Below, piece by piece: positions 1,641 through 35,538 of a stretch of DNA of 35,538 bases (its first letter is position 1; every line of letters starts with the position of its first letter). Position numbers and translations under genes: made by a program. The notes under the pieces are model-generated. The model saw nothing but the letters and a program-made list of their open reading frames with translations. It searched no databases and was not told the origin of the DNA. Source of the DNA: a virus (Duplodnaviria; Caudoviricetes); the IMG/VR virus record IMGVR_UViG_3300020042_002931, positions 1-35,538 of that record. One strand, 5' to 3'.

Positions 1641-1647
1641 GTTTAAT

Positions 1648-1670
1648 ACAATTACAACTTTATTTTATTA
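1648..1670 (+). promoter_or_regulatory. Putative late promoter ACAA-N13-TTATTA
   Basis: Same boxes and 13-nt spacing at 8684, 9512, 12736, 31119 and 33134. Confidence 0.6.
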
Positions 1671-1687
1671 TTATCAAAAACAATAAT

Positions 1688-2371: not shown

Positions 2372-2436
2372 CATATCTAACATTTGAGAAACAAAAGAAT
2401 CAAATAGAATCAGATTTAATAAAGAAAAATAAATGA
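2176..2436 (+). CDS. -1 frameshift extension (GT-like): ...LHFRQRTIEKYDDLFGE...FGKRWGWYSSIYAIAQGD...IKKNK
   Basis: Open -1 frame from the T TTT TTT heptamer to a TGA overlapping the next ATG; also open and conserved in copy 2. Confidence 0.7.
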   Translation, partial: FFLHFRQRTIEKYDDLFGEQQGDSDYSASAQFGKRWGWYSSIYAIAQGDLIQFDRVTELPINQCLTYLTFEKQKNQIESDLIKKNK

Positions 2437-3412: not shown

Positions 3413-3573
3413 ATATAGTGAAAATTTATATAACTGATAACGATTTTGTTAAAAGTTTTACGATTGAAAGCGAAAATGTAATTGACTCAAGTCAATATGT
3501 AATTTTATGGAGTTGCAAAGAAGAAATATATATAGATGAAGAATTAATTGATACAAAATATCATACAATATGA
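3409..3573 (+). CDS. Hypothetical protein (54 aa, MNIVKIYITDND...)
   Basis: ATGA-coupled at both ends; conserved in copy 2 (34903..35064). Confidence 0.7.
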   Translation: MNIVKIYITDNDFVKSFTIESENVIDSSQYVILWSCKEEIYIDEELIDTKYHTI

Positions 3574-11535: not shown

Positions 11536-11559
11536 ATTAACTTTAAAAAATATAAAACT

Positions 11560-12111
11560 ATGCCTTGCGATATTTCATTAGGAAGAGCCGAACAATGTAA
11601 AAATTCAATCGGTGGATTAAGAGCAGCATACTTCATTAATTGGGGTGATGCTACAACGGTAACATATTCTGCAACTGCAGGAAGTGAAGATGTAATAACT
11701 GCTTTAGGTGGAACTCCTATCGGTTACAAATATGAATTAAAAGGAAGTTCTACATTTGAGCAAACTTTAACTTCATCAAGAGAAAATGGAACTACATTTG
11801 TAGACCAAAAATTATCTTTAAGTATTAAAAAATTAACTGTTGCTGACCACAAACAGTTGAAATTACTTTCTTATGGTAGACCGCAAGTTATTGTAGAAGA
11901 TAACAATGGTAACTTCTTTTTAGCAGGTTTAACTAAAGGAATGGATTTAGTTACTTCAACTATTTCAAGTGGTGCTGGTATGGGCGATATGTCAGGTTAT
12001 AAAATTGAATTTCAAGGTATGGAACCTTTAGCAGCAAATTTTATAGTACCTACTGCTGGTACATTAGTTAGTGCAGTTTTAGCTTCTATTGTTGAAGGTA
12101 CTGTAGCATAA
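11560..12111 (+). CDS. Putative major tail (tube) protein, paralogue 1
   Basis: 183 aa, MPCDISLGRAEQCKNSIGG...SSRENGTTF...GRPQVIVEDNNG. Confidence 0.65.
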   Translation: MPCDISLGRAEQCKNSIGGLRAAYFINWGDATTVTYSATAGSEDVITALGGTPIGYKYELKGSSTFEQTLTSSRENGTTFVDQKLSLSIKKLTVADHKQLKLLSYGRPQVIVEDNNGNFFLAGLTKGMDLVTSTISSGAGMGDMSGYKIEFQGMEPLAANFIVPTAGTLVSAVLASIVEGTVA

Positions 12112-12134
12112 TATTAATTTTAAAAAAATATACT

Positions 12135-12674
12135 ATGCCTTGTGATATAACTTTGGGGAGAGCCGAACAATGTAAGAACGTTATAGGTGGAATAAGGGCA
12201 GTTTGGTTTTTTAATTATCTTAGTAGTACTGTTATAACTGTTGATGGCAATGATGTAATACAAAATGTATCAAATCCTGGTGACGCATCACTATATAAAT
12301 ACGAATTAAAGGGTGCATCAACTTTTGAACAAACAGTTACTTCGTCAAGAGAAAATGGTTCTGCTTTTGTAGAACAGAAATTAACTTTACATTTAAAGAA
12401 GTTATCTATTGCAGACCACAAACAACTTAAAATTTTAAGTTATGGTAGACCAAGAATATTTGTAGAAGATAACAACGGTAACATATTTTTAGCTGGAAAA
12501 GAAAAAGGTATGGAATTAACTTCTTCTACAATTTCTACAGGTGCAACGATGAGTGATATGTCAGGTTATAAATTAGAATTTGTAGGAACTGAATTTATTG
12601 CTGCTAATTTTATTCTCAATAACGATGTAGATGCTGTTGGATTAGAATTTATTGTTGTAGGTACTGTAGCATAA
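12135..12674 (+). CDS. Putative major tail (tube) protein, paralogue 2
   Basis: 179 aa, collinear with paralogue 1; same N-terminal motif and C-terminal GTVA. Confidence 0.65.
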   Translation: MPCDITLGRAEQCKNVIGGIRAVWFFNYLSSTVITVDGNDVIQNVSNPGDASLYKYELKGASTFEQTVTSSRENGSAFVEQKLTLHLKKLSIADHKQLKILSYGRPRIFVEDNNGNIFLAGKEKGMELTSSTISTGATMSDMSGYKLEFVGTEFIAANFILNNDVDAVGLEFIVVGTVA

Positions 12675-18501: not shown

Positions 18502-19617
18502 ATGATACAAATTAAAGAAGAATTTAAAAAATTAATTCCTGCATTAACAAATGAAGAATTTAAACAACTTGAAGCGAATTGCTTGGCTGAGGGTATTCGT
18601 GAAAAAATTATAACTTGGAATGGGTTTATAATTGATGGGCATAACCGTTTTGAAATTGCTACCCGTTGGAATTTAGATTATCAAACTGAAAGTAAAAGAT
18701 TTGATAATGAAAATGATGTTCGTGAATGGATGATTAACAACCAATTTGGTAGAAGAAATTTAAGTAATTATCAAAGAAGTGTTTTAGCTTTAGAACTTGA
18801 AAGTGTATTTTCTGCAAGAGCAAAAGAAAGAATGTTAAGTGGCAAACCTGTGCCGAAATCAGAACAGGGTAGAACTATTGAAAAAGTTGCTGATGTTGCA
18901 AATGTTGGTAAAGATACAATAGCAAAAGTAAAAGTAATTGAAGCCAAAGCAAGTGAAGAAGTTAAAGCACAATTAAGCACTGGCGAAGTAAGTATAAACC
19001 AAGTTTATCAAGAAATAAAAAAAGAGGAAAAGAAAGCAGTTAGAATTGAATTAATTGAACAACAAATAGAAGATATTGAACAGGGTTTATTGCCTGAATT
19101 AGAAGGTTTATTTGATGTTGTTTCAGTTGACCCGCCTTGGCCTTATGAAGGAGAAAACAAAAATATAACTTCATTTGATTCAGTAGGTAGAAGAGTTGCA
19201 AATCCATATCCTGAAATGAGCATTGAAGATATAAAAAAAATTGAAATGCCTTTAATAAATGATGCTGTTGTATTACTTTGGACTACACATAAATTTTTGC
19301 CTGATGCTTTTGAAATTTTAAAAGAATGGGGATTAGATTACAAAGCAACTTTAGTTTGGAATAAAGAAAAAATGGGAATGGGTGCTTGGTTTAGAATGCA
19401 ATGTGAGTTTTGTATTGTAGGAGTTAAAGGTAAACCATATTGGGAAAATACAACCTTTAGAGATATTTTAAACGAACCAAGAAGGGAACACTCAAGAAAG
19501 CCAGATTCGTTTTTTGAAATGATTGAAAAAATAACAATGGGAAGAAGGTTAGAATATTTTAGTAGAGAAAAAAGAAATGGATGGGAAGTTTTTGGAAACG
19601 ATATAAATAAATTTTAA
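18502..19617 (+). CDS. ParB-like N-terminal domain fused to MT-A70 family N6-adenine methyltransferase
   Basis: IIDGHNR and QFGRRNL (ParB-like); VDPPW, LLWTT, LVWNK, HSRKP and LEYFSR (MT-A70). Confidence 0.88.
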   Translation: MIQIKEEFKKLIPALTNEEFKQLEANCLAEGIREKIITWNGFIIDGHNRFEIATRWNLDYQTESKRFDNENDVREWMINNQFGRRNLSNYQRSVLALELESVFSARAKERMLSGKPVPKSEQGRTIEKVADVANVGKDTIAKVKVIEAKASEEVKAQLSTGEVSINQVYQEIKKEEKKAVRIELIEQQIEDIEQGLLPELEGLFDVVSVDPPWPYEGENKNITSFDSVGRRVANPYPEMSIEDIKKIEMPLINDAVVLLWTTHKFLPDAFEILKEWGLDYKATLVWNKEKMGMGAWFRMQCEFCIVGVKGKPYWENTTFRDILNEPRREHSRKPDSFFEMIEKITMGRRLEYFSREKRNGWEVFGNDINKF

Positions 19618-20897: not shown

Positions 20898-21452
20898 ATG
20901 GAATTAACACTTAATCAAAAACTATCTTTAATTCAAAAAGAATTTAAAGCAAACAAATCAAAATTAAATAGTTTTGGAAAATACAACTTTAGAAGTGCAG
21001 AAGATATATTAGAAGCACTTAAACCTTTTAACGAAAAATATAAAGTGAATTTTACAATTACAGAATCAATAGTTGAATCACAATTTTTACAATTTCCAAT
21101 GTTACGTTCTGTAGCTGCAATAAGTGATGATTTAGACACACTAACGGCTTCAGCAATAGTTGGTGTAGATTTAGAACAAAAAGGAATGCAAATGCCACAA
21201 AAGTTTGGTTCTGCAAGTTCTTATGCTAAAAAGTACGCATTAGGTAATTTATTGCTAATTGACGATACACAAGATGCAGACGCATCAAATAAGCACGAAA
21301 AGAGTACTTCTAAAGAAGAATTAAAATGGTTAAATAAAAATACACCTGAATTTAATAAAGCATTAGAATACGTTAAAAATGGTGGTTTAGTTTCTGCAAT
21401 AGAAGCTAAATATAAAATGACTAAAGAAGTGAAAGACGAATTAACTAAATAA
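20898..21452 (+). CDS. erf: ERF-family single-strand annealing protein
   Basis: YNFRSAEDIL and GSASSYAKKYALGNLLLIDDTQDAD signature. Confidence 0.88.
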   Translation: MELTLNQKLSLIQKEFKANKSKLNSFGKYNFRSAEDILEALKPFNEKYKVNFTITESIVESQFLQFPMLRSVAAISDDLDTLTASAIVGVDLEQKGMQMPQKFGSASSYAKKYALGNLLLIDDTQDADASNKHEKSTSKEELKWLNKNTPEFNKALEYVKNGGLVSAIEAKYKMTKEVKDELTK

Positions 21453-21507
21453 GTTATAACGGTTGAGTGTAAAAAATCGTTTTAATGTTTTTTACACTTT
21501 GTTATAA
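21453..21507. repeat. attC-like hairpin A1
   Basis: GTTATAAC-ggttg-AGTGTAAAAAA-11 nt-TTTTTTACACT-tt-GTTATAA. Confidence 0.8.
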
Positions 21508-21548
21508 GTATGTTAATTTTTAGTTTTACCTTATAAAAAATATATAAT

Positions 21549-21782
21549 ATGAAAAGAGAATTGAAATGTATTCACAATAGAGCAATAAATCCAGAAATGG
21601 GTGTAGTGTGTGATTTAAGACAACCAAACTCATTGTGTAAAAACTGTAAAACATTCAAGGCGAAATACCCAAGTTATTGCTGTCAAAAATGTGGAGAATG
21701 TATAGGTTGGCTTGGTAGATTTATTGAATGGGTTTATTGTGGTTTGATAAAGCATAAATGTAAATCCAAAGCTAAAAATTAA
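21549..21782 (+). CDS. Cassette-borne Cys-rich protein (77 aa)
   Basis: ORF inside GTTA...TAAC unit 21501-21793. Confidence 0.65.
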   Translation: MKRELKCIHNRAINPEMGVVCDLRQPNSLCKNCKTFKAKYPSYCCQKCGECIGWLGRFIEWVYCGLIKHKCKSKAKN

Positions 21783-21786
21783 TTAC

Positions 21787-21917
21787 TTATAACTATCGTA
21801 TAGACGTCTGTTGCGTAAAAACACAAAACCATCTTTCAGTTTAACACGGAATTGAAAGGTACAAAACAATCACTAAATTAATCACAATGTAGCAATAGCG
21901 TGTAATTGCTGTTATAA
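21787..21917. repeat. attC-like hairpin A2
   Basis: TTATAAC...TAGACG[T]CTGTTGC ... GCAATAG-CGTGTA...GTTATAA, with inner stem CTTTCAGTT/AATTGAAAG. Confidence 0.7.
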
Positions 21918-21926
21918 CCAGTTATT

Positions 21927-22142
21927 ATGTGGAATAGAGAATTAAAAGAAAGAATAAAGTTATTAGAATATGAGAATTACTTATTATCTAATAAACTAAA
22001 AGAAATTGAAAAGCAGTTAAAACCAATTATGCCATCATTTTCATTTCCAAGATTAATTAGAGAAGATGGAATTGATTTAAGTTACGAACATTTAAGAAAA
22101 AAATATCGTGATTTCGATGTTATTTACAAAGATGGGTTATAA
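21927..22142 (+). CDS. Cassette-borne hypothetical protein (71 aa)
   Basis: ORF inside unit 21911-22153. Confidence 0.65.
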   Translation: MWNRELKERIKLLEYENYLLSNKLKEIEKQLKPIMPSFSFPRLIREDGIDLSYEHLRKKYRDFDVIYKDGL

Positions 22143-22146
22143 TTGG

Positions 22147-22213
22147 TTATAACGTTTACAGCTATACGTCAGGTTTTGTTTTTCAAAAAACTTGCGTATA
22201 GGTGGTGTTATCG
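22147..22213. repeat. attC-like hairpin A3
   Basis: TTATAAC...CTATACG[T]CAGGTTTT-9 nt-AAAACTTG-CGTATAG...GTTATCG. Confidence 0.8.
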
Positions 22214-22256
22214 GCTGCCCTTCTTTAGGAATGATTAATAATTTAAAATAAATAAA

Positions 22257-22496
22257 ATGGAACAAACAACACTTAAAAAGCTAATTGATTTTAATGATAA
22301 ATTGATAGCTAAAAATGGAGAAACTTTAACTGCATACGAAATTTTACAAAAAGTAATTCGTAAAGCTGCGGAACTTGTTGAAGAAGAAAAAACAATTATT
22401 GCAGATGCTTTTAACGAAGGTTATAGAGCAGGTAATTATGACAGGGGAACTTCTGGAATTGAATACTATGTCGAAAATTTCGGTGATGTCAGTTAG
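22257..22496 (+). CDS. Cassette-borne hypothetical protein (79 aa)
   Basis: ORF inside unit 22207-22509; resembles 30514..30726. Confidence 0.7.
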   Translation: MEQTTLKKLIDFNDKLIAKNGETLTAYEILQKVIRKAAELVEEEKTIIADAFNEGYRAGNYDRGTSGIEYYVENFGDVS

Positions 22497-22502
22497 GGTT
22501 GC

Positions 22503-22578
22503 CGATAACTATCGTATAGACGCTGTAGATTTAAAAAACAAAATAAGTATTATCTATTGCGTTTATACTAAGTTATAA
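22503..22578. repeat. attC-like hairpin A4
   Basis: CGATAAC-tatc-GTATAGACGC-tg-TAGAT ... ATCTA-tt-GCGTTTATAC-taa-GTTATAA. Confidence 0.75.
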
Positions 22579-22582
22579 TTAT

Positions 22583-22590
22583 TATATTTG
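22583..22590 (+). promoter_or_regulatory. Promoter -7 box TATATTTG for the SSB-like gene
   Basis: TAnnTTTG about 55 nt before the ATG at 22646. Confidence 0.6.
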
Positions 22591-22645
22591 TAAAACTGAA
22601 TAGCTGACAACAGTAAAAAAAGGTAAGCAATAAAAAACAAATAAT

Positions 22646-22942
22646 ATGGGTGCATTAATTAATTTAAGTTTAAGAGTAGACAAATTACCAAAAGAGAAGT
22701 TTGTTCAAGGTAAAGATGGAGCAGTTTATTACAATTTTACTATTGGAGTAAATGATGAATCTAACCAATGGGGTCAAAATGTTTCTGCAACAGATTCACA
22801 AACTAAAGAAGAACGTGAAGCTAAAAAGCCAAAGTCTTATTTAGGTAATGGAAATGTAATTTGGACAGATGGTAACATTAAAATTGCTGATAAAAAAGCA
22901 GAAGTTACTGCAGAAGTAGTAGGAGCGGATTTGCCGTTCTAA
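22646..22942 (+). CDS. Putative single-stranded DNA-binding protein
   Basis: 98 aa, beta-rich, C-terminal DLPF tail, near erf. Confidence 0.65.
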   Translation: MGALINLSLRVDKLPKEKFVQGKDGAVYYNFTIGVNDESNQWGQNVSATDSQTKEEREAKKPKSYLGNGNVIWTDGNIKIADKKAEVTAEVVGADLPF

Positions 22943-22950
22943 ATTTAATT

Positions 22951-22977
22951 GGGTAGTGTAAAAGCTACCCTTTTTTT
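22951..22977 (+). terminator. Intrinsic terminator
   Basis: GGGTAGT-gtaaaa-GCTACCC-T7. Confidence 0.85.
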
Positions 22978-22996
22978 AAACAAAGAAAACAATAAT

Positions 22997-23839
22997 ATGG
23001 ATATAGAAGCACAAAGATTATTAATGCAAATGTACGAGGAAGAATGCTTTATTAATCCATTAGAAAAAATAGAACACCCAAAACCTGCAATATCATTTGG
23101 AACTAAAAGTTATGAAACAAAAGATGGCGAAGTAAGTTATCCAGTACCATTAGGAACATACGGAAACTTTAGTTTTATACAAGCACCGCCAAAATCAAAG
23201 AAAACATTTTTTGTAAGTTTATTATCAGCAGTTTATTTAGCTGAAAATTTACAATCATTTGCAGGTGATTTAAAAGCAAATAGACACAATCAGCATTTAG
23301 TACATTTTGATACAGAACAAGGTAACTTTCACGCTGCAATGGTATTTAAAAGACCATTAGATATGACTTCAATAAAATCAGATAAATACCACACATTAGC
23401 ATTAAGACAATTAGGATTTAAAGAACGTATAGACTTTATAGAATATTATCTTTATGACAAATTAGAAGGTAAAAATATTGGATTAGTAATTATTGATGGA
23501 ATTGCAGATTTATGTAGTGATGTAAATAACATTGAAGAATCAAATAATGTGGTTCAAAAGTTAATGAAATGGACAAAAGAATTGAATTGTCATATAATAA
23601 CAGTTATCCATAGTAACTTTGGTTCAGATAAACCAACAGGTCATTTAGGTTCTTTTTTAGAAAAGAAAACAGAAACACAAATACAATTAGAATTAAATAC
23701 AGTAAATAAAGGATTAGTAACCGTAAGTTGTAAACGCTCAAGAAACGCACCATTTGATAACTTTAGCTTTAAAGTTAATAGTTTTGGATTGCCACAAGTT
23801 GAAGGTGCTTTTTACGACCCATTAAAAGATATATTTTAA
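22997..23839 (+). CDS. RecA-like AAA ATPase/helicase (AAA_25-like)
   Basis: Variant Walker A APPKSKKT, FDTEQG, Walker B VIIDGIADL, VIH...GHLGS. Confidence 0.8.
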   Translation: MDIEAQRLLMQMYEEECFINPLEKIEHPKPAISFGTKSYETKDGEVSYPVPLGTYGNFSFIQAPPKSKKTFFVSLLSAVYLAENLQSFAGDLKANRHNQHLVHFDTEQGNFHAAMVFKRPLDMTSIKSDKYHTLALRQLGFKERIDFIEYYLYDKLEGKNIGLVIIDGIADLCSDVNNIEESNNVVQKLMKWTKELNCHIITVIHSNFGSDKPTGHLGSFLEKKTETQIQLELNTVNKGLVTVSCKRSRNAPFDNFSFKVNSFGLPQVEGAFYDPLKDIF

Positions 23840-23840
23840 A

Positions 23841-24290
23841 ATGATAAAATTTGAAAAATTTTTAATAGAAAAAGAATATTTAAAGTTTGCTTTTAATGGC
23901 AAAGAAATGAAGTATTACAAACCAAAAGAACATATTATTTCGACAATGTTAAATTTAGGGCATCGTTATATACATAATTCAGATACTAATTTGTTAAATA
24001 AAATAGAACAAGGTAAAAGTGTTATGGAAAAGGATTTTACTTGGGAAGATAGAAAAGGCGAAATATTTATAGGTTTACACGAAAAAGATAAACCTGTTAC
24101 GCTAATTAGTCCAAGACCAAGAATAGAAATAAAAAGATTAATAGATAATAAAGTAGTTGTTTTTAATGAACGGTATGATAATGAAATGAATGTTGTTTTA
24201 TCAAAAATTGATTTTGAAGATATTTTAAAAGCAATGTATAATAAAGAAATAATATTAAAAATAGATTTAACTAATGGAAACAACAATTAA
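23841..24290 (+). CDS. Hypothetical protein (149 aa)
   Basis: ORF track. Confidence 0.65.
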   Translation: MIKFEKFLIEKEYLKFAFNGKEMKYYKPKEHIISTMLNLGHRYIHNSDTNLLNKIEQGKSVMEKDFTWEDRKGEIFIGLHEKDKPVTLISPRPRIEIKRLIDNKVVVFNERYDNEMNVVLSKIDFEDILKAMYNKEIILKIDLTNGNNN

Positions 24291-24561
24291 AAATCACATA
24301 AACGAATTACAAACTTCTGCGACAAGAATGTTAGTATTAAATTCAGATAACAAAATGTTAATAAGTTATTTTAAAGACTTAACAGAAAAGTTGTTATATT
24401 TGAAACAATTAGTTGATATGGAAACTAAATACAACTGGATTGAAATAGAAAATTTAATGTTAAAGTTAAAAGAAATAGATACAGAATTAACACACATTAA
24501 TATTGAAGTACAAATAGCAGAAGTAAAAACAGAAAAGAAATCAGCATATATAAAAAATTAA
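24274..24561 (+). CDS. Hypothetical protein (95 aa)
   Basis: ORF track; packed operon. Confidence 0.65.
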   Translation: METTIKNHINELQTSATRMLVLNSDNKMLISYFKDLTEKLLYLKQLVDMETKYNWIEIENLMLKLKEIDTELTHINIEVQIAEVKTEKKSAYIKN

Positions 24562-24565
24562 AATT

Positions 24566-24781
24566 ATGGAATTATTTACATTAATATTAGTATTTATTTT
24601 AGCAGTAGTATTTTTAGCAACAAGTTTTTTTGAATGTGATGTAATAATCACGCCAATTAAAGGAGTAATGTTTGGTGCATTATATAACGATGATGTGTAT
24701 ATTACAGAAACAGACCACACAATTCAAATAGTAATATTATTTATATCCTTTAATTTTTTATGGACAACTACAAATGGTTAG
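24566..24781 (+). CDS. Small membrane protein (71 aa)
   Basis: N-terminal hydrophobic helix. Confidence 0.6.
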   Translation: MELFTLILVFILAVVFLATSFFECDVIITPIKGVMFGALYNDDVYITETDHTIQIVILFISFNFLWTTTNG

Positions 24782-25302
24782 AACAGGTTGCAAAACATCA
24801 CAAAGAATGGGTAGAAGTTATTTATAAACTTGGCGAGTATGATTATGCAGAAGATATAGTCCAAGAAAGTTACATTGCTTTAATGAAATATGCTGATGCT
24901 ACAAAGCTAATTGATGTAAATGGTAATGTACGAAAAGGATATATGTTTTTTACTTTACGTTCTTTGTATTATCAGTTTTACAATAAAAAGAAAAAGATTA
25001 ATAAAGTATCTTTTGATGGTTGCTGGGAATTATTTGATGAAACAAACGTAGAAGAACACAAAGCATATCATAATATCTGTTTAATAATAGATGAAGAAAT
25101 AGATAATTGGCATTGGTATGACCGCAAATTGTTTAAATTATACCGAGATACAGATATGTCAATGCGGGATATAGCAAAAGAAACAAACATAAGTTTAATA
25201 TCAATTTTTCATAGCATTAAGAATTACAAAGAAATATTAAATACTAAATTTCAAAAAGATTATCAAGATTATATTACAAATGACTATAATAATATTTACT
25301 AA
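24760..25302 (+). CDS. ECF-type sigma-70-like factor
   Basis: Region 2-like AEDIVQESYI and region 4 HTH SMRDIAKETNISLISIFHSIKN; 180 aa. Confidence 0.75.
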   Translation: MDNYKWLEQVAKHHKEWVEVIYKLGEYDYAEDIVQESYIALMKYADATKLIDVNGNVRKGYMFFTLRSLYYQFYNKKKKINKVSFDGCWELFDETNVEEHKAYHNICLIIDEEIDNWHWYDRKLFKLYRDTDMSMRDIAKETNISLISIFHSIKNYKEILNTKFQKDYQDYITNDYNNIY

Positions 25303-25511
25303 TGAATTGGAATTATATAGAAGGTTTAATTAAATTTTATAATTATATAGATTTTAACACACTATCTAAAGTTAAAATAGAAGAAATACCAGCAACAAAT
25401 GATTTAAAAATGATATTTTCAGTATCTAATATTATTCATTTAGTAAGGGAAAAAGATTACAAAATTACAAAAGAAGATTTGAATTATATAAACAAAATTA
25501 AAAACAATTAA
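25302..25511 (+). CDS. Hypothetical protein (69 aa)
   Basis: TAATG-coupled to the upstream gene. Confidence 0.6.
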   Translation: MNWNYIEGLIKFYNYIDFNTLSKVKIEEIPATNDLKMIFSVSNIIHLVREKDYKITKEDLNYINKIKNN

Positions 25512-25512
25512 A

Positions 25513-25893
25513 ATGGCAAGAGGTAGAAAAGCAAAAGGTTTAGGTGATACAATAGAATCTATCACAACCGCAACAGGAATTAAAGCAGTAGTAGAAACAT
25601 TTAGCAAAGCAACTGGATTAGATTGTGGATGCGACAAACGTAAAGAAACATTAAATAAATTGTTTCCTTATAATTCAAACATTAACTGTTTAACAGAAGC
25701 AGATTATAATTTATTAACAGGGTTTTTAGACCCTTTAAAAAACACATTAACACCAAGTGAACAATTAATAGTATCAGATATTTATTTTAACGTATTTAAT
25801 TATCGTTTGCAATTATCATCTTGTGGTTCTTGTTGGAAAGGGAAAGTAGAAGAATTAAGAAAAGTTTATAACGAATACAAATTAAATGACTAA
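25513..25893 (+). CDS. Phage protein with GLGDT...CGC...CGSC motifs (probable metal binding)
   Basis: ORF track; Cys pattern. Confidence 0.7.
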   Translation: MARGRKAKGLGDTIESITTATGIKAVVETFSKATGLDCGCDKRKETLNKLFPYNSNINCLTEADYNLLTGFLDPLKNTLTPSEQLIVSDIYFNVFNYRLQLSSCGSCWKGKVEELRKVYNEYKLND

Positions 25894-26281
25894 CTGGAAA
25901 GAAGTTGATTTATTTGAATGGTTAAAAGAAAATGTATATCCTGATTTAGTTAAAGCTAAGAATCAAATGTCAAGGTGGGATTGTTACAGTCCCGCTTCAG
26001 GTCATAGATTAGAATTAAAGTGTAGAAAAGCACATTATGGTACTTTATTACTTGAAAAGAAAAAGTACGATGCAATGAAGCAAGAATGTGAAAAGCATTT
26101 AGATACACCAATGTATTTTAATTCAACTCCAAAAGGTATTTATAGTTTTAATTTAAACATAATTATACCTGAATGGGAAACTAACTTTAAGAATCCAGCA
26201 ACAACACAATTTTATAATACCAATAAAGTAGAAAAAGAAGTAGCATATTTAGAAATAACAAAAGCAAAACAATGGAAATAA
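25886..26281 (+). CDS. PD-(D/E)XK nuclease-like protein
   Basis: E...RWDC...LELKCR motif. Confidence 0.6.
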   Translation: MTNWKEVDLFEWLKENVYPDLVKAKNQMSRWDCYSPASGHRLELKCRKAHYGTLLLEKKKYDAMKQECEKHLDTPMYFNSTPKGIYSFNLNIIIPEWETNFKNPATTQFYNTNKVEKEVAYLEITKAKQWK

Positions 26282-26628
26282 ATGTAATACAGCAAGAGTA
26301 TTTAAAATCAGTAATATTAAGTCAATTATTACTTGAAGCAAACGAAAGTTTGTTTTTTACAACACAATACAAACAACAAATTAAACACAAAATAAATAGT
26401 TTAAATAAAGATTTAGAAGAAACAGTAAGAAAAGAATATAGTATAATTTACAATACAGACCCTGAAACAACAACAAACATTTTAAATAGTATTGAAGCAA
26501 TAGTTAAAAAACTGCAAACAAGTTCAATAGATGAATTAGTATTTATAAATGCAGTTATCGACAAATATAAAGAAAACAAAGAATGGTTTTCAGAACACGC
26601 TGAAACAGAGTTTTTAAAATTAAATTAA
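26272..26628 (+). CDS. Hypothetical protein (118 aa)
   Basis: ORF track. Confidence 0.65.
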   Translation: MEINVIQQEYLKSVILSQLLLEANESLFFTTQYKQQIKHKINSLNKDLEETVRKEYSIIYNTDPETTTNILNSIEAIVKKLQTSSIDELVFINAVIDKYKENKEWFSEHAETEFLKLN

Positions 26629-26633
26629 AAAAT

Positions 26634-26810
26634 ATGGAAATTAAAATGGTTTTATATGTAGACGAAAAAAACATATCACAAATAAATTGGAATACAGATA
26701 ATAAATTTATTGCGGAAGATATAAATGAAATATTAAATTCAAAACATATACCAGTAGAAAAAACAATAGAAGTAATTACAAAAATATTAAATAATAAATA
26801 TGAAAAGTAA
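26634..26810 (+). CDS. Hypothetical protein (58 aa, MEIKMVLYVDEK...)
   Basis: Fills the gap; TAATG-coupled to the next gene. Confidence 0.6.
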   Translation: MEIKMVLYVDEKNISQINWNTDNKFIAEDINEILNSKHIPVEKTIEVITKILNNKYEK

Positions 26811-27073
26811 TGGCAAAAAAACAAATAGAAAAATATATTCCTACAGATGCGGAATTACAATGTAGTTACATTTGCCATAAAAATGATTTAGCTTATGTTA
26901 TACAACCAATACAAAATTCAAAGAAATACAAAGTAGTTAAGTTTCAAATATCAAACAGGTTAGAAGTACATACTTTAAAAGATAACGCACAAGATTTAGA
27001 ATTAACAGAATACGAAGCATTAAAGAAAACAATGGAACTTTACACACAACACTCAAAAAGATTTAACAAATGA
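26810..27073 (+). CDS. Hypothetical protein (87 aa)
   Basis: ORF track. Confidence 0.65.
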   Translation: MAKKQIEKYIPTDAELQCSYICHKNDLAYVIQPIQNSKKYKVVKFQISNRLEVHTLKDNAQDLELTEYEALKKTMELYTQHSKRFNK

Positions 27074-27255
27074 AAGATACAATAGTAAAATCAGTTATAA
27101 ATCAATTTAAACAGCGTTCTGAAGTAGGAATTAATAAATATAACACAACATTAGATAGAACAGATTTAACACGCTTAGAATGGTTGCAACACGCACAGGA
27201 AGAAGCAATGGATATGATTTTATATCTTGAAAAATTAAAACAATATGAAAAGTAA
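27070..27255 (+). CDS. Small all-alpha protein, possibly MazG/NTP-pyrophosphatase-like
   Basis: GINKY...WLQHAQEEAMD..LY pattern (EExxD). Confidence 0.5.
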   Translation: MKDTIVKSVINQFKQRSEVGINKYNTTLDRTDLTRLEWLQHAQEEAMDMILYLEKLKQYEK

Positions 27256-27379
27256 ACAATCAGCACTGCAAAGAATAAATAGAATTATAGATTTTAACTG
27301 GAAACGTGGAAACAATAAAGAATCAGTTAATGAAGTTTACAGAAAAATAATTAATCAAAAGCTATCTAATAAAAGGTAG
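27245..27379 (+). CDS. Basic hypothetical protein (44 aa)
   Basis: MKSKQSALQRINRIIDFNWKRG...; overlaps the upstream gene. Confidence 0.55.
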   Translation: MKSKQSALQRINRIIDFNWKRGNNKESVNEVYRKIINQKLSNKR

Positions 27380-27387
27380 CTTTTTTT
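27357..27387 (+). terminator. Intrinsic terminator
   Basis: AAAAGCTATCT-aataaa-AGGTAGCTTTT. Confidence 0.75.
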
Positions 27388-27392
27388 ATTTT

Positions 27393-27453
27393 GTTAAATA
27401 TTTGTTAATTTTTAATAAAAAGTTTTTTAATGTAAATAACTTGTTTATATTTG
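27393..27453 (+). promoter_or_regulatory. Early promoter (TATATTTG) with tandem GTTAA boxes
   Basis: GTTAA at 27393 and 27404; -7 box at 27446-27453. Confidence 0.7.
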
Positions 27454-27476
27454 TATAACAATTAAAAACAAACATT

Positions 27477-27686
27477 ATGACAAAGCAAGAAATTATTGAA
27501 ACATTAAGTAACTGTATTGAAATAGTAAACTTATCAGAAAACACTTATGTAAGAAACAAACTTACACAAGTAGCAGAAGCATTAATAAAAGAATGGAACG
27601 AAAGTGATGCTTATGAGGAAGTAGTTAAACAGGTATTAAATTACGATGAAACAATGTTAAATTTAGATAAAATAAGAATAAGATAG
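27477..27686 (+). CDS. Hypothetical protein (69 aa)
   Basis: First ORF after the promoter. Confidence 0.65.
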   Translation: MTKQEIIETLSNCIEIVNLSENTYVRNKLTQVAEALIKEWNESDAYEEVVKQVLNYDETMLNLDKIRIR

Positions 27687-27700
27687 TAACGGTTGAGTGT

Positions 27701-27850
27701 ATGAGTAGTAAAAATAGAATTATACCAAATGTTCCAAAAGAGGAACGAGTTGGTTTTGAATGTGGTTATCATAAAATACCAAATTGGATGTTAATATTGT
27801 TTGGTATAATTGTATTTGTTGGGATTGTGTGTTGGGTTTATTGTTCATAA
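27701..27850 (+). CDS. 49-aa protein with C-terminal TM helix
   Basis: MSSKNRIIPNVPKEERVGFECGYHKIPNWMLILFGIIVFVGIVCWVYCS; its stop codon lies in the TAAC of the next hairpin. Confidence 0.55.
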   Translation: MSSKNRIIPNVPKEERVGFECGYHKIPNWMLILFGIIVFVGIVCWVYCS

Positions 27851-28057
27851 CGTTTCTCGGCTATACGTCAGGTTTTTTACGGATTTGAAACACTAAATTA
27901 AAATATATGATGCAAGTAATTGAAATGACACACTCTGAAAAAGTAGAGATGTATCAAATGATTGAGAAAGATAGATTGATAGAAATGCTGATAGAAGCGA
28001 ATAATGTTATTAACCGACTAACGGAAGTAAAAAACTTGCGTATAGCCGATGTTAGTG
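27845..28057. repeat. attC-like hairpin A6 with a gene start inside its loop
   Basis: TAAC-gtttc-TCGGCTATACG[T]CAGGTTTTTTAC (27857-27880) ... GTAAAAAACTTG-CGTATAGCCGA (28027-28049)-t-GTTAGTG. Confidence 0.85.
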
Positions 28058-28170
28058 GGCGAAGCGAACTGTTAATTGCCTTGCAGAACATTGAAAAGAT
28101 TTGCGATAACCAAAATCCAACGCACGAAGAAATATGGAGGATTGCTTATGGGGCAATTAATAGCCAGTAA
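27907..28170 (+). CDS. Two-module hypothetical protein spanning a cassette junction (87 aa)
   Basis: Reads through the hairpin arm as KNLRIADVSGRSELL. Confidence 0.7.
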   Translation: MMQVIEMTHSEKVEMYQMIEKDRLIEMLIEANNVINRLTEVKNLRIADVSGRSELLIALQNIEKICDNQNPTHEEIWRIAYGAINSQ

Positions 28171-28261
28171 CGTTTTGCAGCTTTAAGAAGTGGCTGCCTA
28201 AAAATTACTTCATTTGACAAACAATGCTTATGGCAGACATTTTTTAAAGGTGCTGTTATAG
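28165..28261. repeat. attC-like hairpin A7
   Basis: TAAC-gtttt-GCAGCTTTAAGAAGTGGCTGCC ... GGCAGACATTTTTTAAAGGTGC-t-GTTATAG. Confidence 0.8.
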
Positions 28262-28280
28262 GTAGTTAATTTACAGAAAA

Positions 28281-28484
28281 ATGAATAAATTATTACTTAC
28301 ATTAAAAAGAGATTACAACGATTCAATAATTTTAGTTGCAAATAATCATAAGGATTTAGAAGATTACTTACGTTCAAATTATGATTTTCATAAAATAAAT
28401 GTAAATGATGATTCGGTTATTATTGTAGCAAGAGAAGGTTATGAAACAGAATATGGAACACTTGAATGGATACGTCAAGTTTAA
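28281..28484 (+). CDS. Cassette-borne hypothetical protein (67 aa)
   Basis: ORF inside unit 28255-28495. Confidence 0.7.
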   Translation: MNKLLLTLKRDYNDSIILVANNHKDLEDYLRSNYDFHKINVNDDSVIIVAREGYETEYGTLEWIRQV

Positions 28485-28527
28485 TTACCTATAACTACTC
28501 GCTACACGCTATAAATGTATTACAATT

Positions 28528-28710
28528 ATGAAACAGTACACGCAAACAAAAGTAATTCGCATTTCAGAAATGCAATTAAATACGCTTCAAAAAATGAAAT
28601 CTTTAAACGTTGATGTAGGTAATTTTATCAGAATAGCAATACAAGAAAAAATTAAAAGAGATTACAAAGAATTAATATTGAAACCTAAAAAAGAATATTG
28701 TCCGTTTTAA
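28528..28710 (+). CDS. Ribbon-helix-helix-like DNA-binding protein
   Basis: TKVIRISE...VGNFIRIAIQEKI pattern (beta-alpha-alpha). Confidence 0.55.
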   Translation: MKQYTQTKVIRISEMQLNTLQKMKSLNVDVGNFIRIAIQEKIKRDYKELILKPKKEYCPF

Positions 28711-28720
28711 AAAATAAACT

Positions 28721-28924
28721 ATGAATGAATTAGCATTAATAAAAATACAATCTAAAGTAATGGGATTGGATAGAGAATTACACCAAGCAGTTAATGATTT
28801 AATAAGCGGTAAAAGTTTAATTAGTGACGAACATTTAACTGTAGTAATTAACAGTACTGAACGTGAATTAAGAGTTTACAATCATATTTTAAAGTTAATA
28901 ATTAACAATCAAGAAGTAAACTAA
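28721..28924 (+). CDS. Hypothetical protein (67 aa)
   Basis: ORF track. Confidence 0.6.
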   Translation: MNELALIKIQSKVMGLDRELHQAVNDLISGKSLISDEHLTVVINSTERELRVYNHILKLIINNQEVN

Positions 28925-29637
28925 TGGTAGTATTATTTGATGCAGATAGTTTGATATTTTCAAGCTGCTACAAGAAACGTGAAACTCTTGATGACGATGG
29001 ATTTCACCATAATATTGAAGATGCAATGGTAAAATTTGATGAAGTGTTTATGTATATTATAAACTACCTTGAAGATATTTACGAAATAAATGAAGTAAAA
29101 ACATTTTCAGGTTCTAAAGGTAATTTTAGAAAATACATATCACCTAAGTATAAAGCAAATAGAGACTACAATAATCTACCTCCATTACTAAATGAAATGC
29201 ACCAATATGTAAAAGAACAATATAATTCTATATTTGGTTATGGATGTGAAACAGATGATGTAGTTGCTAAATACTGGTTTGAATTATCAAATACAATAGG
29301 CAGAGATAATGTAATAATAGTTTCAATAGATAAAGACTATAAACAATTCCCTTGCTTGATGTATAACTACCATATAAAACATAAATGTATCTATGATATA
29401 TCAGAAGAAGAAGCACTATATAACTTCTATGAACAAATGATAGTAGGCGATACAGCTGATAATGTAAACTACTGCAAAGGATATGGTAAAAAGTATGCAG
29501 AAAAGTATTTAGCAGAATGCAAAACTAAATATGAATATACTAAAAAGATATACCAATTATTTAAAGAATTACACAAAGGAAAAGCAAGGCAAAGATATAT
29601 TGAATGTTGGAACTTATTAAAACTAAAAACAGATTAA
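28924..29637 (+). CDS. 5'-3' exonuclease (T7 gp6/T5 FEN-like)
   Basis: FDADSL, NFRK...YKANR, ETDD, DKD and GDTADN motifs. Confidence 0.88.
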   Translation: MVVLFDADSLIFSSCYKKRETLDDDGFHHNIEDAMVKFDEVFMYIINYLEDIYEINEVKTFSGSKGNFRKYISPKYKANRDYNNLPPLLNEMHQYVKEQYNSIFGYGCETDDVVAKYWFELSNTIGRDNVIIVSIDKDYKQFPCLMYNYHIKHKCIYDISEEEALYNFYEQMIVGDTADNVNYCKGYGKKYAEKYLAECKTKYEYTKKIYQLFKELHKGKARQRYIECWNLLKLKTD

Positions 29638-31458: not shown

Positions 31459-32650
31459 CGATAAATTTAATTTATTAGGTTCTGAAAGTAGATACTTTGT
31501 TATAACAGGTGGACGTGGTTCTGGTAAGTCTTATTCTTTAAATTCATTTTTATTAGGATTGACTTATGAAACAGGACACGTAATATTATTTACAAGATAT
31601 ACATTAACATCTGCATCTGTATCTATTATACCTGAATTTATAGATAAGATTGAAACAGCTAATTTAAGCCACGATTTTTATATAACTAAGGACGAAATCA
31701 TAAATAGAAAAACAGGGTCTAAGATTCTATTTAAAGGTATTAAAACAAGTAGTGGTACACAAACAGCATCACTTAAATCATTAGCAGGTGTTACAACTTG
31801 GGTGTTAGATGAAGCAGAAGAATTAACAGATGAAGAAACATTTGAAAAGATAGACTTTAGCATAAGAACTAAAGGCATACACAATAGAGTTTTATTAGTA
31901 TTAAACCCTGCAACAAAAGAACACTTTATATATAAGAAATTCTTTGAAGATAAAGGAGTAGAAGCCGGTAGTAATTTAATCAAAGGAGATACTACATACA
32001 TACACACAACCTATTTAGATAATATTGAAAACCTATCCGAATCATTTATAAATCAAATAGAGAATATAAAGAATCGTAGACCTGAGAAATACAAACATCA
32101 GATATTAGGTGGATGGTTAGATAAAGCAGAAGGTGTTATCTTTACTAATTGGACTATAGGAGAATATAAACAGGTAGGTAAATCTGTATTCGGCCAAGAT
32201 TATGGATTTGCTGCAGACGCATCAACTTTAGTAGAATGTAATATAGACACAACAAACAAACGAATTTATATTAATGAAAGGTTTTATCTGCACGGTTTAA
32301 CTACTTCGCAGATATACCATTTAAATAGGCAACACGCAAATGATTGTTTAATAGTAGCAGATAGTGCTGAACCAAGATTGATAAGTGAATTAGCTACATT
32401 AGGTTTAAATATAGTTCCTGCAATTAAAGGTCCTGATTCTGTTACTTATGGTATTAGTGTATTGCAAGATTATGATTTGATAGTATCACCTGAATCAATA
32501 AACTTAATTAAAGAATTAAACAATTATTGTTGGTTAGAAAAAAGGTCTAAAACTCCAATCGATGCGCACAATCATATTATTGACCCATTAAGATATTGTA
32601 TTACATATCAATTAGGTAACGCAAACAAAGGTAATTACTTTATATACTAA
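31442..32650 (+). CDS. terL: Terminase large subunit (complete)
   Basis: GGRGSGKS, WVLDEAEE and NHIIDPLRY motifs. Confidence 0.95.
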   Translation: MEINLNDKFNLLGSESRYFVITGGRGSGKSYSLNSFLLGLTYETGHVILFTRYTLTSASVSIIPEFIDKIETANLSHDFYITKDEIINRKTGSKILFKGIKTSSGTQTASLKSLAGVTTWVLDEAEELTDEETFEKIDFSIRTKGIHNRVLLVLNPATKEHFIYKKFFEDKGVEAGSNLIKGDTTYIHTTYLDNIENLSESFINQIENIKNRRPEKYKHQILGGWLDKAEGVIFTNWTIGEYKQVGKSVFGQDYGFAADASTLVECNIDTTNKRIYINERFYLHGLTTSQIYHLNRQHANDCLIVADSAEPRLISELATLGLNIVPAIKGPDSVTYGISVLQDYDLIVSPESINLIKELNNYCWLEKRSKTPIDAHNHIIDPLRYCITYQLGNANKGNYFIY

Positions 32651-32799
32651 TGACATACGGAGAAATAATAGCAGCAATACAATGTTACATACATCACGTT
32701 AAAGGAATAGAAGTGGCTATTAATCTACCACGTAATATAGGTGAAATTAAAAAGATGCAACAGATGTATACTATAGCAGCTGAGTATTTAAAAAGTTAA
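32650..32799 (+). CDS. Small hypothetical protein (49 aa), homologue of 1254..1403
   Basis: MTYGEIIAAIQCYIHHVKG... Confidence 0.75.
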   Translation: MTYGEIIAAIQCYIHHVKGIEVAINLPRNIGEIKKMQQMYTIAAEYLKS

Positions 32800-32844
32800 A
32801 TAATTGTTAAAACTAATTTATGTAACAAATTTATATTATATTTG
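32795..32844 (+). promoter_or_regulatory. Promoter (TATATTTG) with tandem GTTAA boxes
   Basis: GTTAA at 32795 and 32806; -7 box at 32837-32844. Confidence 0.7.
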
Positions 32845-32869
32845 TTAAAAATTTAAAACAAACAAACAA

Positions 32870-33076
32870 ATGAAAAAAATTAAAGTAGCAGTTAATTATT
32901 GTAATATAGAATTTGAAGTAAAAGGATTCTATACAAAAGGTGATTCATATGATTATACAGGTAGCACTATTGAAGATGAAGAAATATTAATAGAAGGTGT
33001 TGATGTGTATGAAATACTATCTTCAAAACAAATGAATGATATAATTGATTTAGCAATACATCAAATAGAAGATTAG
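32870..33076 (+). CDS. Acidic hypothetical protein (68 aa), alternative occupant of the variable slot
   Basis: Unrelated to 1471..1584 at the syntenic position. Confidence 0.7.
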   Translation: MKKIKVAVNYCNIEFEVKGFYTKGDSYDYTGSTIEDEEILIEGVDVYEILSSKQMNDIIDLAIHQIED

Positions 33077-33097
33077 GTTAATTAAATTTGGTTAAAG

Positions 33098-33126
33098 AGG
33101 TGTGCAGAAATGTACGCCTTTTTTTT
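33098..33126 (+). terminator. Intrinsic terminator
   Basis: AGGTGTGCA-GAAA-TGTACGCCT plus T-run. Confidence 0.85.
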
Positions 33127-33133
33127 GTTTAAT

Positions 33134-33156
33134 ACAATATCACAAAATAGTTATTA
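33134..33156 (+). promoter_or_regulatory. Putative late promoter ACAA-N13-TTATTA
   Basis: Boxes retained while the spacer differs from copy 1. Confidence 0.6.
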
Positions 33157-33173
33157 ATATAAAAAACAATAAT

Positions 33174-33857
33174 ATGAAATTAGAAATAAGCATACCTACA
33201 GAATTAAAAGAAATTAAGTTATCACAATATCAAGCGTTCTTAAAGATAGCTAAAGATAATGAAGATGAAGAATTTTTGAATCAGAAAATGGTACAAACAT
33301 TTTGTAATATAGATTTAAAAGATGTAGCTGAAATTAGATTTAAAGATGTATTAGAAATAACTGCATCACTTGGTAAAATGTTTAATGTGCAATCACATAA
33401 ATTTATAAACAGATTTAAACTTGGTGGAGTTGAGTTTGGTTTTATTCCTGAATTAGAAGATATGACCTTTGGTGAATATACAGATTTAGATTCATACATA
33501 GGTGATTGGGATAATATGCACAAAGCTATGGCAGTATTATATAGACCAATTACAAAGAAGGGTTTAAATAACACGTATGAAATAGAAAAGTATAATGGTA
33601 GTATTACATATAGTGATGTAATGAAACACGCACCTTTGGATGTTGTATTTGGTGCTAATGTTTTTTTTTACAATTTAGGCAACGAACTATTGAAAAGTAC
33701 ACTGACTTATTTGGAGAACAATCAGGAGACACAGACTATTCTGCATCAGCACAATTTGGACAACGGTGGGGATGGTACAGTTCAATCTATGCTATTGCTC
33801 AAGGAGATCTTACAAGATTTGATAGAGTTACCGAATTACCAATTAACCAATGTTTAA
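33174..33857 (+). CDS. Putative tail assembly chaperone, copy 2 (-1 extension to 33919)
   Basis: T9 run at 33661-33669; -1 frame open to TAA at 33917-33919. Confidence 0.65.
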   Translation: MKLEISIPTELKEIKLSQYQAFLKIAKDNEDEEFLNQKMVQTFCNIDLKDVAEIRFKDVLEITASLGKMFNVQSHKFINRFKLGGVEFGFIPELEDMTFGEYTDLDSYIGDWDNMHKAMAVLYRPITKKGLNNTYEIEKYNGSITYSDVMKHAPLDVVFGANVFFYNLGNELLKSTLTYLENNQETQTILHQHNLDNGGDGTVQSMLLLKEILQDLIELPNYQLTNV

Positions 33858-33918
33858 CATATTTAACATTTGAGAAACAAAAGAATCAAATAGAATCTGA
33901 TTTAATTAAAAAAAGATA

Positions 33919-34374
33919 ATGAGTACATTTTACGAAATAACACAAGTGATTAAAAACAAACTGCAAGAAGATTTGTTTGTTAATACAGTAACAACTGGTG
34001 ATATATTTAAAGTTGATTTAAATAAGTTAACTATATTTCCTTTAAGTCATATTATAGTTAATTCAGTATCTTATCAAGGTCCTGTATTGAACTATAATAT
34101 ATCTATTTTATGTATGGATATTGTAGATGAATCAAAAGAAAAGGTAACAGATATATTCTTGGGTAATGATAACGAGCAAGATGTATTAAATACACAATTA
34201 GCTGTAGCAAATAGATTCTTAGAATTATTAAGTCGTGGTGATTTAGCTGATGATTATGAATTAGTAAACAATAGTGCAAACATAGAATTTTTTACAGAAC
34301 GATTTGAAAACAAAATAGCAGGTGTTACATTTACTTTTGATATGGCTATTGAAAACAGAATGACAAAATGTTAA
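33919..34374 (+). CDS. Homologue of 2433..2888
   Basis: Same length, highly similar protein. Confidence 0.75.
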   Translation: MSTFYEITQVIKNKLQEDLFVNTVTTGDIFKVDLNKLTIFPLSHIIVNSVSYQGPVLNYNISILCMDIVDESKEKVTDIFLGNDNEQDVLNTQLAVANRFLELLSRGDLADDYELVNNSANIEFFTERFENKIAGVTFTFDMAIENRMTKC

Positions 34375-34906
34375 AACTTGAAAAGGTAAACAAAACTATT
34401 CAAATGTTTCGTGACTATGTTATTCGTGAAGCAAAGGATAATTTAAAAAGCAAAGGTCATAACAATACAAGTTCATTAGCAAATAGTATTAAAGGTGAAG
34501 TAGTAACAGAAAACGATTTTACTATTGTAGGCTTTAAGATGAACGATTATGGTACGTTTGTAGATTTAGGTGTTAAAGGTAAAACAAGTTCTAATAAAGC
34601 GCCTGATTCTCCTTACAAGTTTGGTTCAGGTACAGGTCAAAAAGGCGGTTTAACAAAAGGAATAAATCAATGGGTTAAACAAAAAGGTTTTCAATTTCGT
34701 GATAAAAAATCGGTAGGTTTTTAAGTTATGATTCAACAGCTTATTTAATTACACGTTCTATATTTCACAAAGGAATTAAACCAAGTTTATTTTTTACAAA
34801 ACCATTTGAAGCAGGATATAAGAAATACATCGATGTAGATTTAATAAAAGCATTTGGTCAAGATGTAGAAACAATGGTAGATTATAATTTAAAAGATATA
34901 AAATGA
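34368..34906 (+). pseudogene. Homologue of 2882..3412 with a 1-bp deletion near 34711 (pseudogene or sequence error)
   Basis: aaatcggtagg versus aaatcaggtagg in copy 1; the downstream part stays intact in another frame. Confidence 0.7.
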
Positions 34907-35064
34907 ACATAGTAAAAATTTATAAAGAAAAAGATACAATTCCAACTTTCATAATAGAAAGTGAAAATTTAATTGATACAACTCAATACGTAATTTTATG
35001 GGATTGCAAAGAAGAAATATATATAGATGAAGAATTAATTGATACAAAATATCATACAGTATGA
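34903..35064 (+). CDS. Homologue of 3409..3573
   Basis: MNIVKIYKEKDTIPTF...IDTKYHTV. Confidence 0.7.
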   Translation: MNIVKIYKEKDTIPTFIIESENLIDTTQYVILWDCKEEIYIDEELIDTKYHTV

Positions 35065-35538
35065 AAGTAGTTAGAGTAAGAAGTCCGTTTATAATTGAAG
35101 TAAACGAAGCTGGTTCAATAGGAAGTAAAATTGAATTATTTATTTATAATAATGGAAGTGGAGTTCCTGCTACCCCTACATATACATTATCAAAACCAAA
35201 CCCAAGTGCAACACAATTAAGTACATCTTATAATGTTTCTAATTTTGTTAAAGAATATATAGATAATATAAAACCAAACAATGTTAATAATCCATTAGCA
35301 GGTAGTGAAGCAGTTAAAGAATGGGTTTTATTTACAGTAAAAAGATATAAATTAGTAGGAAGTACATATACACTTTTAGACACTACTATATATTATGGTG
35401 TTAATGGATTCACAAATTATTCAGATGGAATACAAAATCCAAGCAATACTAAAATTCTTCTTTTAGCAAATCCAAATATTAATAATTATTATTATAAAGA
35501 TTCTTATGCTGATTTAAAAATGGAGTATTTAAATCTTT
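35061..35538 (+). CDS. Homologue of 3570..4688 (3'-truncated by window)
   Basis: MKVVRVRSPFIIEVNEAGSIGSK... Confidence 0.8.
   Translation, partial: MKVVRVRSPFIIEVNEAGSIGSKIELFIYNNGSGVPATPTYTLSKPNPSATQLSTSYNVSNFVKEYIDNIKPNNVNNPLAGSEAVKEWVLFTVKRYKLVGSTYTLLDTTIYYGVNGFTNYSDGIQNPSNTKILLLANPNINNYYYKDSYADLKMEYLNL

Follow-up and report, generated by a model that had tools for sequence, protein, structure and literature searches.

Elements that exploit the Xer machinery, such as CTXphi, carry a folded single-stranded attP that is used by a host Xer-type tyrosine recombinase; each has one site, integrates at dif, and is without a cassette array or a translated joint. Closer to the locus described here are the attC clusters, or CALINs, that Qi et al. 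(2023; PMC9892861) report in phages, among them a Polaribacter phage; the supplements to that paper list further phage clusters, which may include sites of the present kind. Common to both are folded AAC...GTT sites between small genes, complementary cassette ends, precise gain and loss at AA/C on the better-folding strand (a slash marks the position of the cut throughout) and a phage that lacks an integrase. Unlike attC arrays, however, the arrays described here have a hairpin that precedes its gene and a bulged T on the AAC arm rather than opposite it, and their loops, which reach ~150 nt, encode the heads of proteins. The accessible text of PMC9892861 mentions no genes that start inside the sites, and the term “start codon” is absent from it.

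Coding sites have been described in two other contexts. The synthetic attC peptide linkers of Nivina et al. (2020; PMC7439510) are likewise folded, coding sites for module shuffling, but, as presented there, they are engineered for IntI1, the whole site forms the linker, and the main crossover lies inside the gene. Here the sites are natural, only one arm serves as linker, and the main crossover lies elsewhere than at the translated joint. ORF-11 and ORF-18 of attI1, and short ORFs of attC, resemble the present genes in that translation runs from the site across GTT into the next cassette (PMC8876359). The attI1 peptides are described there as 11-18 aa long, acting by translational coupling and belonging to one fixed site, whereas here many hairpins encode heads of 13-50 aa that are fused to tails without a start codon. 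No published description of these sites, or of natural head-tail shuffling, was found in the literature searched, which takes in few subscription journals.

The window (the whole stretch of DNA analysed, 35,538 nt) is a 35.5-kb phage contig of 27.7% G+C with terminase, lysozyme, ERF and NinG genes; no tyrosine recombinase was matched among the 54 window ORFs scanned. Relatives are found in freshwater runs, and no RNA holder is listed among 24 runs. We infer a Bacteroidota host because two of the window's hairpins have their matches mainly in cultured Flavobacterium phages (16/17 records). The window holds two arrays (Table 1), of which the one containing hairpin A6 spans 27688-28520. Both are missing from related phages of the same waters, the joints running from 27685 to 28721/28732 for the A6 array and from 21443/21452 to 22591 for the second.

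Table 1. Coordinates of the arrays, joints and associated genes in the window.
Feature	Position	Strand	Remarks
Hairpin A6 (AAC...GTT), 205 nt	27849..28053	+	AT-rich leader, start codon and codons 1-40 in loop
ORF P0001, 87 aa	27907..28170	+	Head, residues 1-48; Val49 at GTT; tail, residues 50-87
Cargo without start codon	28051..28171	+	Self-complementary ends; provides tail and stop
TAAC joint	27848..27851	+	Probable main crossover for whole cassettes; carries stop codon of ORF 27701-27850
TGTTA joint	28050..28054	+	Translated boundary between head and tail
Weak first hairpin (27688-27733) and its cargo	27688..27850	+	Found by eye, under folding threshold
Hairpin after A6, 89 nt	28169..28257	+	No read-through ORF found
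Cargo with own gene (28281-28484)	28255..28495	+	Complementary ends, 10/11 first bases
Array end without right arm	28492..28520	+	Sister-phage contigs rejoin window here
Second array	21458..22574	+	Four hairpins, three cargos with complementary ends
Second-array hairpins	21458-21503, 21791-21913, 22151-22209, 22507-22574	+	AAC..GTT arm scan
ERF single-strand annealing protein	20898..21452	+	PF04404, E 5e-27; adjoins second array

The outer parts of A6 are AAC at 27849-27851, a 5-nt spacer and GTT at 28051-28053, and its arms occupy 27857-27880 on the left, with a single unpaired T (27868), and 28027-28049 on the right. Among all the AAC..GTT candidates of the window, this arm pair ranks top (score 34; runner-up, 27), and folding of 27840-28062 on the minus strand gives a z of -2.27, with 3 of 200 shuffles as good. 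The first-pass annotation had placed the start codon and about 40 codons of ORF 27907-28170 within the A6 loop, and had the frame continue through the right arm and GTT into a self-complementary unit, to stop in that unit's TAAC. Both statements are borne out. Codons 41-48 of P0001 (VKNLRIAD) coincide with the right arm and the base preceding GTT, the codon for Val49 is GTT itself, and the stop TAA (28168-28170) sits in the TAAC with which the next hairpin begins. The ends of the cargo pair at 7 of the first 8 bases and then in a second stem of ~12 bp beyond a bulge (~20 bp paired); the bulge contains GCGAAGC, reputedly a very stable DNA mini-hairpin.

P0001 has no Pfam or PHROG match, and a tblastn search of 50,697 annotated phages with P0001 as query returned one weak match. 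An exact DNA pattern taken from the cargo matched none of the viral contigs, and an Rfam scan of 21000-29000 gave no matches at E up to 1. The single-sequence AlphaFold model of P0001 (mean pLDDT, 60.5; pTM, 0.38) is too weak to count; it has helices at 9-41 and 51-85 and a low-confidence stretch at 42-49, an outline that would be compatible with two modules and a linker.

The remainder of the A6 array is built along similar lines. ORF 27701-27850 starts in the weak first hairpin, and its Val11 codon is again GTT. For the hairpin that follows A6, the minus strand, to which the shuffle test is confined, folds no better than shuffles (z 0.33), and the arms give -14.8 kcal/mol on the plus strand versus -7.1 kcal/mol on the minus strand. 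The array end is possibly a putative attI-like insertion site, and a host array (L141) ends in the same manner, with an unfolded end site that lacks a right arm. In the second array, the arms of hairpin 22151-22209 are nearly identical to those of A6, but its loop is short. A contig from run X4 proceeds from 21510 through 24 other bases and back to 21454, and so consists of a hairpin with an empty 42-nt cargo; it represents either a tandem or a small circle. A nearly identical empty cargo sits in L076 (1737-1778).

The central observation is that the two parts of P0001 are found apart from each other, each with many partners. The first-pass annotation had anticipated that a search with separate halves would uncover proteins sharing one half only, with the break at the junction linker. 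Among 99 homologues of P0001, 57 share the head only, 41 the tail only, one neither and none both, which disposes of the contrary expectation that the halves always occur together. Identity to P0001 rises among tail-sharers from 9/41 at Asp48 to 40/41 at Val49, and falls among head-sharers from 38/56 at Val49 to 4/54 at Arg52; the break is thus at the Val49 codon, within the expected linker. Valine occupies the joint in 40 of the 41 tail-sharers and 38 of the 57 head-sharers (the other 19 lack it). With proteins that lack the Val or have a partner of <10 aa left out, 33 head-sharers lead to 17 tail families and 40 tail-sharers to 20 head families. Six of the 17 tail families carry two or more cysteine pairs, which suggests that these tails may be small zinc-binding modules.

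The commonest other head behaves in the same way. Of the 652 proteins that it matched, the best 120 yielded 109 usable sequences, which group into 31 tail families and diverge abruptly at Val. In these 31 families (best 120 of 652), V-5 is Leu in 31/31, the residues before Val are nearly fixed, and V+1 is free, its commonest residue occurring in 11/31. Two tail families are carried by both heads, so that all four combinations exist (P0001, P0041, P0035 and P0130). In the DNA, homology to A6 begins at 27839-27847 and ends at 28055-28058 in four distinct loci and at 28082 in a fifth, and homologues of the P0001 cargo stand behind other hairpins (L011, L012/L013). Altogether 53 ORFs start in a hairpin and cross GTT, 38 of them reading it as a Val codon, 11 in the second phase and 4 in the third, in a set that is biased by the search patterns used. 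In the isolates, read-through genes occur in 13/41 hairpin-cargo pairs (8, 4 and 1 in frames 0, 2 and 1, respectively).

These comparisons bear on whether the window's own head-tail join might be an assembly chimera of two strains. P0001 is the sole one of 100 proteins with both halves, and in contigs from runs X1 and X2 the same hairpin is present but the DNA differs from 28069 onwards. The window ends, 1-4029 and 31461-35517, form a diverged ~4-kb repeat of 78-93% identity that includes two terminase genes; here two strains were likely merged during assembly, a sign of strain mixing that also favours a chimera. The join is bridged by none of the contigs listed for runs X1, X2, X3 and X5, in which a contig can speak only for presence. 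However, the shared stretch at the joint is merely ~30 nt, complete isolate genomes have read-through genes of like build (the 13/41 pairs above), and the general pattern rests on >200 independently assembled proteins. We consider a chimeric join very improbable.

A different question is whether the identity of the head matters to the protein. The head might be only a coding translation leader and irrelevant to protein function, a reading that we hold to be a real possibility, short of an even chance. Many hairpin heads are leaders of 13-25 aa on methyltransferases, and short ORFs in attI1 and attC are described as aiding class 1 integron translation (PMC8876359). The P0001 head fits this less well, being 48 aa long, conserved (19 invariant alignment columns across 22 selected sequences) and kept in genes without hairpins; some head-sharers are intact genes with no hairpin round the head. 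Ordinary cargo genes at L022 (1390), L023 (495) and L029 (1501) open with head-like sequence in the absence of a hairpin, and the tail of the L023 gene is homologous to one that is fused to A6.

Which of the two joints moves whole cassettes can be judged from loci that share a hairpin family. After removal of 5 minor-strand duplicates and of identical records, there are 514 such locus pairs: the downstream cargo is common to both loci in 34, the upstream cargo in none, and neither cargo in 480. In 13 isolate arrays, clean indels consist of a hairpin plus its downstream cargo; the downstream hairpin varies for 10/29 cargos, and 4/29 occur with two upstream hairpins. In two of these four, the upstream hairpins are related variants; in a third, the arms are changed round a homologous loop; the sole unrelated pair differs for a few bases beyond GTTA. 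A hairpin that escaped detection probably lies within each of two isolate cargos (457 and 1170 nt). By these comparisons, the travelling unit is a hairpin with its downstream cargo, which would be cut at the upstream, untranslated TAAC. A crossover at GTT, with the cargo and the downstream hairpin as the unit, is excluded by the same locus-pair and isolate comparisons. Since whole cassettes move at the TAAC end, the translated GTT is a second joint, at which change is less frequent. The proposal of the first-pass annotation that exchange at GTT makes chimeric proteins therefore stands only in part: chimeras of this kind are seen in the sequence record, but GTT is not the usual joint by which cassettes move. 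Exchange at GTT is a second process, real in the sequence record, for which the enzyme and chemistry are proposed below.

One methyltransferase cassette (L102, 1485-1608, and the matching site of L106) has homologous loops within wholly different self-complementary arms; it appears that hairpin arms can be exchanged as pairs round a retained loop. Hairpin 22151-22209 of the window is the converse case, with A6-like arms and a short loop. Annotated DNA methyltransferases are frequent cargos in the Lillamyvirus, Muminvirus and Hattifnattvirus isolates (L102-L115), and vary between isolates.

The two joints also differ in how identity between loci decays, ending sharply at TAAC and more fuzzily past GTT. 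Where the hairpin is the same and the cargo unrelated, at least 8 identical bases follow GTT in 16.7% of 480 pairs (which are not independent, most belonging to one 59-nt family), against a background of 1.7% of 10,498 pairs; before AAC there is no excess. The two ends of a cargo match at 5.67 of 7 bases (n=93), versus 3.12 in random pairs. In L002 and L018, which have the same cargo after an A6-type hairpin, there is a compensating base change at both ends, which suggests either that the ends still pair or that one end was copied from the other.

The excess identity beyond GTT could be taken to favour short-homology recombination between co-infecting phages, by way of their own annealing protein acting on similar arms and cargo leaders, and with no site-specific cut at GTT. 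The same reading gains from the ERF gene adjoining the second array, the presence of a NinG gene, a sister-phage break at 28069 that falls inside a ~19-nt leader common to many cargos, isolates in which one hairpin is a hybrid and a 5' foot is altered, and the occurrence of the same head with another stem in L004. It is harder to reconcile with the second head, whose 31 tail families share little past Val, about 5 common bases (best 120 of 652), or with a right arm that is intact up to Val in 38/57 head-sharers, and we regard it as distinctly unlikely.

The orientation of the cassettes gives the GTT joint a particular position with respect to the gene. In 96/114 families, folding is more stable on the strand in which the sites were detected (mean, 2.0 kcal/mol), a comparison in which the detection threshold may favour that strand; G-T pairs on the better-folding strand number 189 versus 28 for A-C. 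The longest ORF lies on the folding strand in 76/76 cargos of phage-like loci and in 27/27 of isolates. Related hairpins occur in 37/151 genomes of the order to which a Flavobacteriia bin belongs, and in these host loci 39/40 neighbouring ORFs are encoded opposite the folding strand, which is the usual integron layout. The phage cassettes are thus reversed, because their genes sit on the folding strand, opposite to host arrays. As a consequence, each hairpin stands in front of its gene, and the inner boundary between gene and site is the translated GTT.

We put at slightly better than even the reading that a gene such as P0001 combines two modules of an integron-like array, in which a host tyrosine recombinase would reassort hairpin heads and start-less cargo tails. 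The gene-sense strand would fold and be cut at TAA/C, and intact genes would move; less often, the complementary strand would fold and be cut at its own TAA/C (G/TTA in the sense strand), which would place a cargo behind a new hairpin. In a reversed cassette, the hairpin at the 5' end of the gene could supply the start codon and N-terminus, and exchange at G/TTA would yield a chimeric protein whenever both modules share a phase. The enzyme would likely be a host or helper-phage recombinase of ~280 aa, related to IntI/XerA and without the IntI insertion. A cut in the complementary strand is our preferred, hypothetical explanation for exchange at GTT. IntI is described as recombining top strands at lower frequency, with bulge position and strand stability governing which strand it prefers (PMC5027507); here the sense strand is favoured by stability, the bulge faces the AAC of the complementary strand, and both strands might be usable. 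A full two-strand head swap was set aside as indistinguishable, since the filter fixes a T before GTT in 114/114 families.

Several points tell against this two-module reading. All of its support is comparative, and a complementary-strand cut should sometimes leave a shared upstream cargo and hairpin with different DNA downstream, which is the case in 0/514 pairs. The GTT side is partly fuzzy, as the excess identity of 16.7% versus 1.7% indicates, and two phases exist, so that many exchanges would frameshift. Further weight on the same side comes from the isolates, in which no more than 4/29 cargos have two upstream hairpins, and from the head-sharers, of which 19/57 are without Val at the joint and some are intact genes that have no hairpin round the head.

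The reversed orientation also opens the way to an account by cassette birth, in which some cassette-making process would copy a hairpin already present to a fresh gene body, and the pairings would reflect repeated creation rather than later shuffling. Given that orientation, the GTT end is the gene/attC boundary inside an integron cassette. The 59-nt hairpin family, with 35 records and mostly unrelated cargos, would suit such copying, as would the head-like sequence in intact genes that lack a hairpin, some of them with a homologous tail (L022, L023, L029). However, the same cargo stands behind 20 unrelated heads, and there are four-way sets; under cassette birth the body would have to be captured repeatedly with the same precise ends. 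We think this account unlikely.

The two-module reading borrows its machinery from integrons, and the sites resemble attC in part. Inverted AAC...GTT cores closing an imperfect hairpin are present, one strand folds more stably, cassette ends are complementary, and gain and loss occur at AA/C. On the other hand, the core consensus RYYYAAC is found in 7/114 families, and GTTRRRY also in 7/114. Spacers are mostly 5 and 1 nt (48/101 and 19/34 hairpins), as against the unpaired central spacer of 5-6 nt per arm given as the attC norm (PMC5027507). The first bulge is on the AAC arm in 26/40 and 15/16 bulged hairpins, mostly as a T at +16 to +19, and 61/101 and 18/34 hairpins have no bulge in the alignment; the extrahelical G and T of attC, which lie on the arm opposite AAC, are lacking. 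The attC layout, with the gene opposite the folding strand and the site after the gene, is found in host loci and is absent from the phages. The array is integron-like, yet we do not class it as an integron because four attC or IntI features fail.

A candidate enzyme, and no more than a candidate, is the 280-aa tyrosine recombinase of one host array (G066; L141, 7218-8060, minus strand), which is followed by an unfolded end site and then by five hairpin-bounded cassettes. In a second genome (G115), a partial tyrosine recombinase adjoins the array. An intact tyrosine recombinase near the arrays examined is absent in 3/5 host genomes checked, one of which (G045) has a broken recombinase fragment ~4 kb from the array. 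The array-adjacent host enzyme scores 223 against TIGR02249 (cut-off, 265) and is also under the XerC and XerD cut-offs. It is without the IntI4 segment near residues 186-243, which we take to be the IntI region tied to single-strand recognition. An insertion region of IntI has been linked to such recognition (PMC7790495). Close relatives of the 280-aa recombinase occur in 40/151 genomes, comprising 18/37 of those that bear hairpins versus 22/114 of the others (odds ratio, 4.0; p 0.001, with kinship ignored). A hairpin lies within 1.5 kb downstream in only 6 of the 20 recombinase loci with at least 600 nt of downstream sequence, which counts against the two-module reading; 10/30 recombinase contigs stop within 250 bases of the gene. 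In Cellulophaga phage phi19:3, a 418-aa tyrosine recombinase, weakly XerD-like, stands beside an array.

It is a tentative and rather doubtful extension that Bacteroidota phages run a dedicated two-ended shuffling, with whole genes exchanged at one end and, in a fixed phase, heads and tails at the other, both being selected. If so, a phage population would be a combinatorial library of small early proteins and a natural protein-domain recombinator, the translated joint of which would be the boundary at which integron cassettes presumably originate. Reassortment of heads and tails at a single codon would be a concrete source for many small orphan proteins of Bacteroidota phages, and nature would show what attC linkers were engineered to do. 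Because the variable joint is the boundary between gene and site, it also bears on how a gene joins its recombination site. The same hairpins are present in cultured Flavobacterium phage-host pairs, so that both joints and the candidate enzyme are directly testable. The main text of the paper on these cultured phages is without the words integron, cassette or hairpin; in the part accessible, it ties a methyltransferase difference to plating efficiency.

Some further features were seen outside the two arrays and in other records. L075 (1-4991), a contig from a bacterial bin, is made up of nothing but cassettes bounded by hairpins, and two of its genes resemble DNA methyltransferases; it has matching ends ~4850 bases apart and is possibly a multi-cassette circle. 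The window itself has an MT-A70 family methyltransferase gene at 18502-19617, outside both arrays. In its structural region (11547-12674), there are two neighbouring paralogous genes of ~180 aa with 74% DNA identity over 300 bases.
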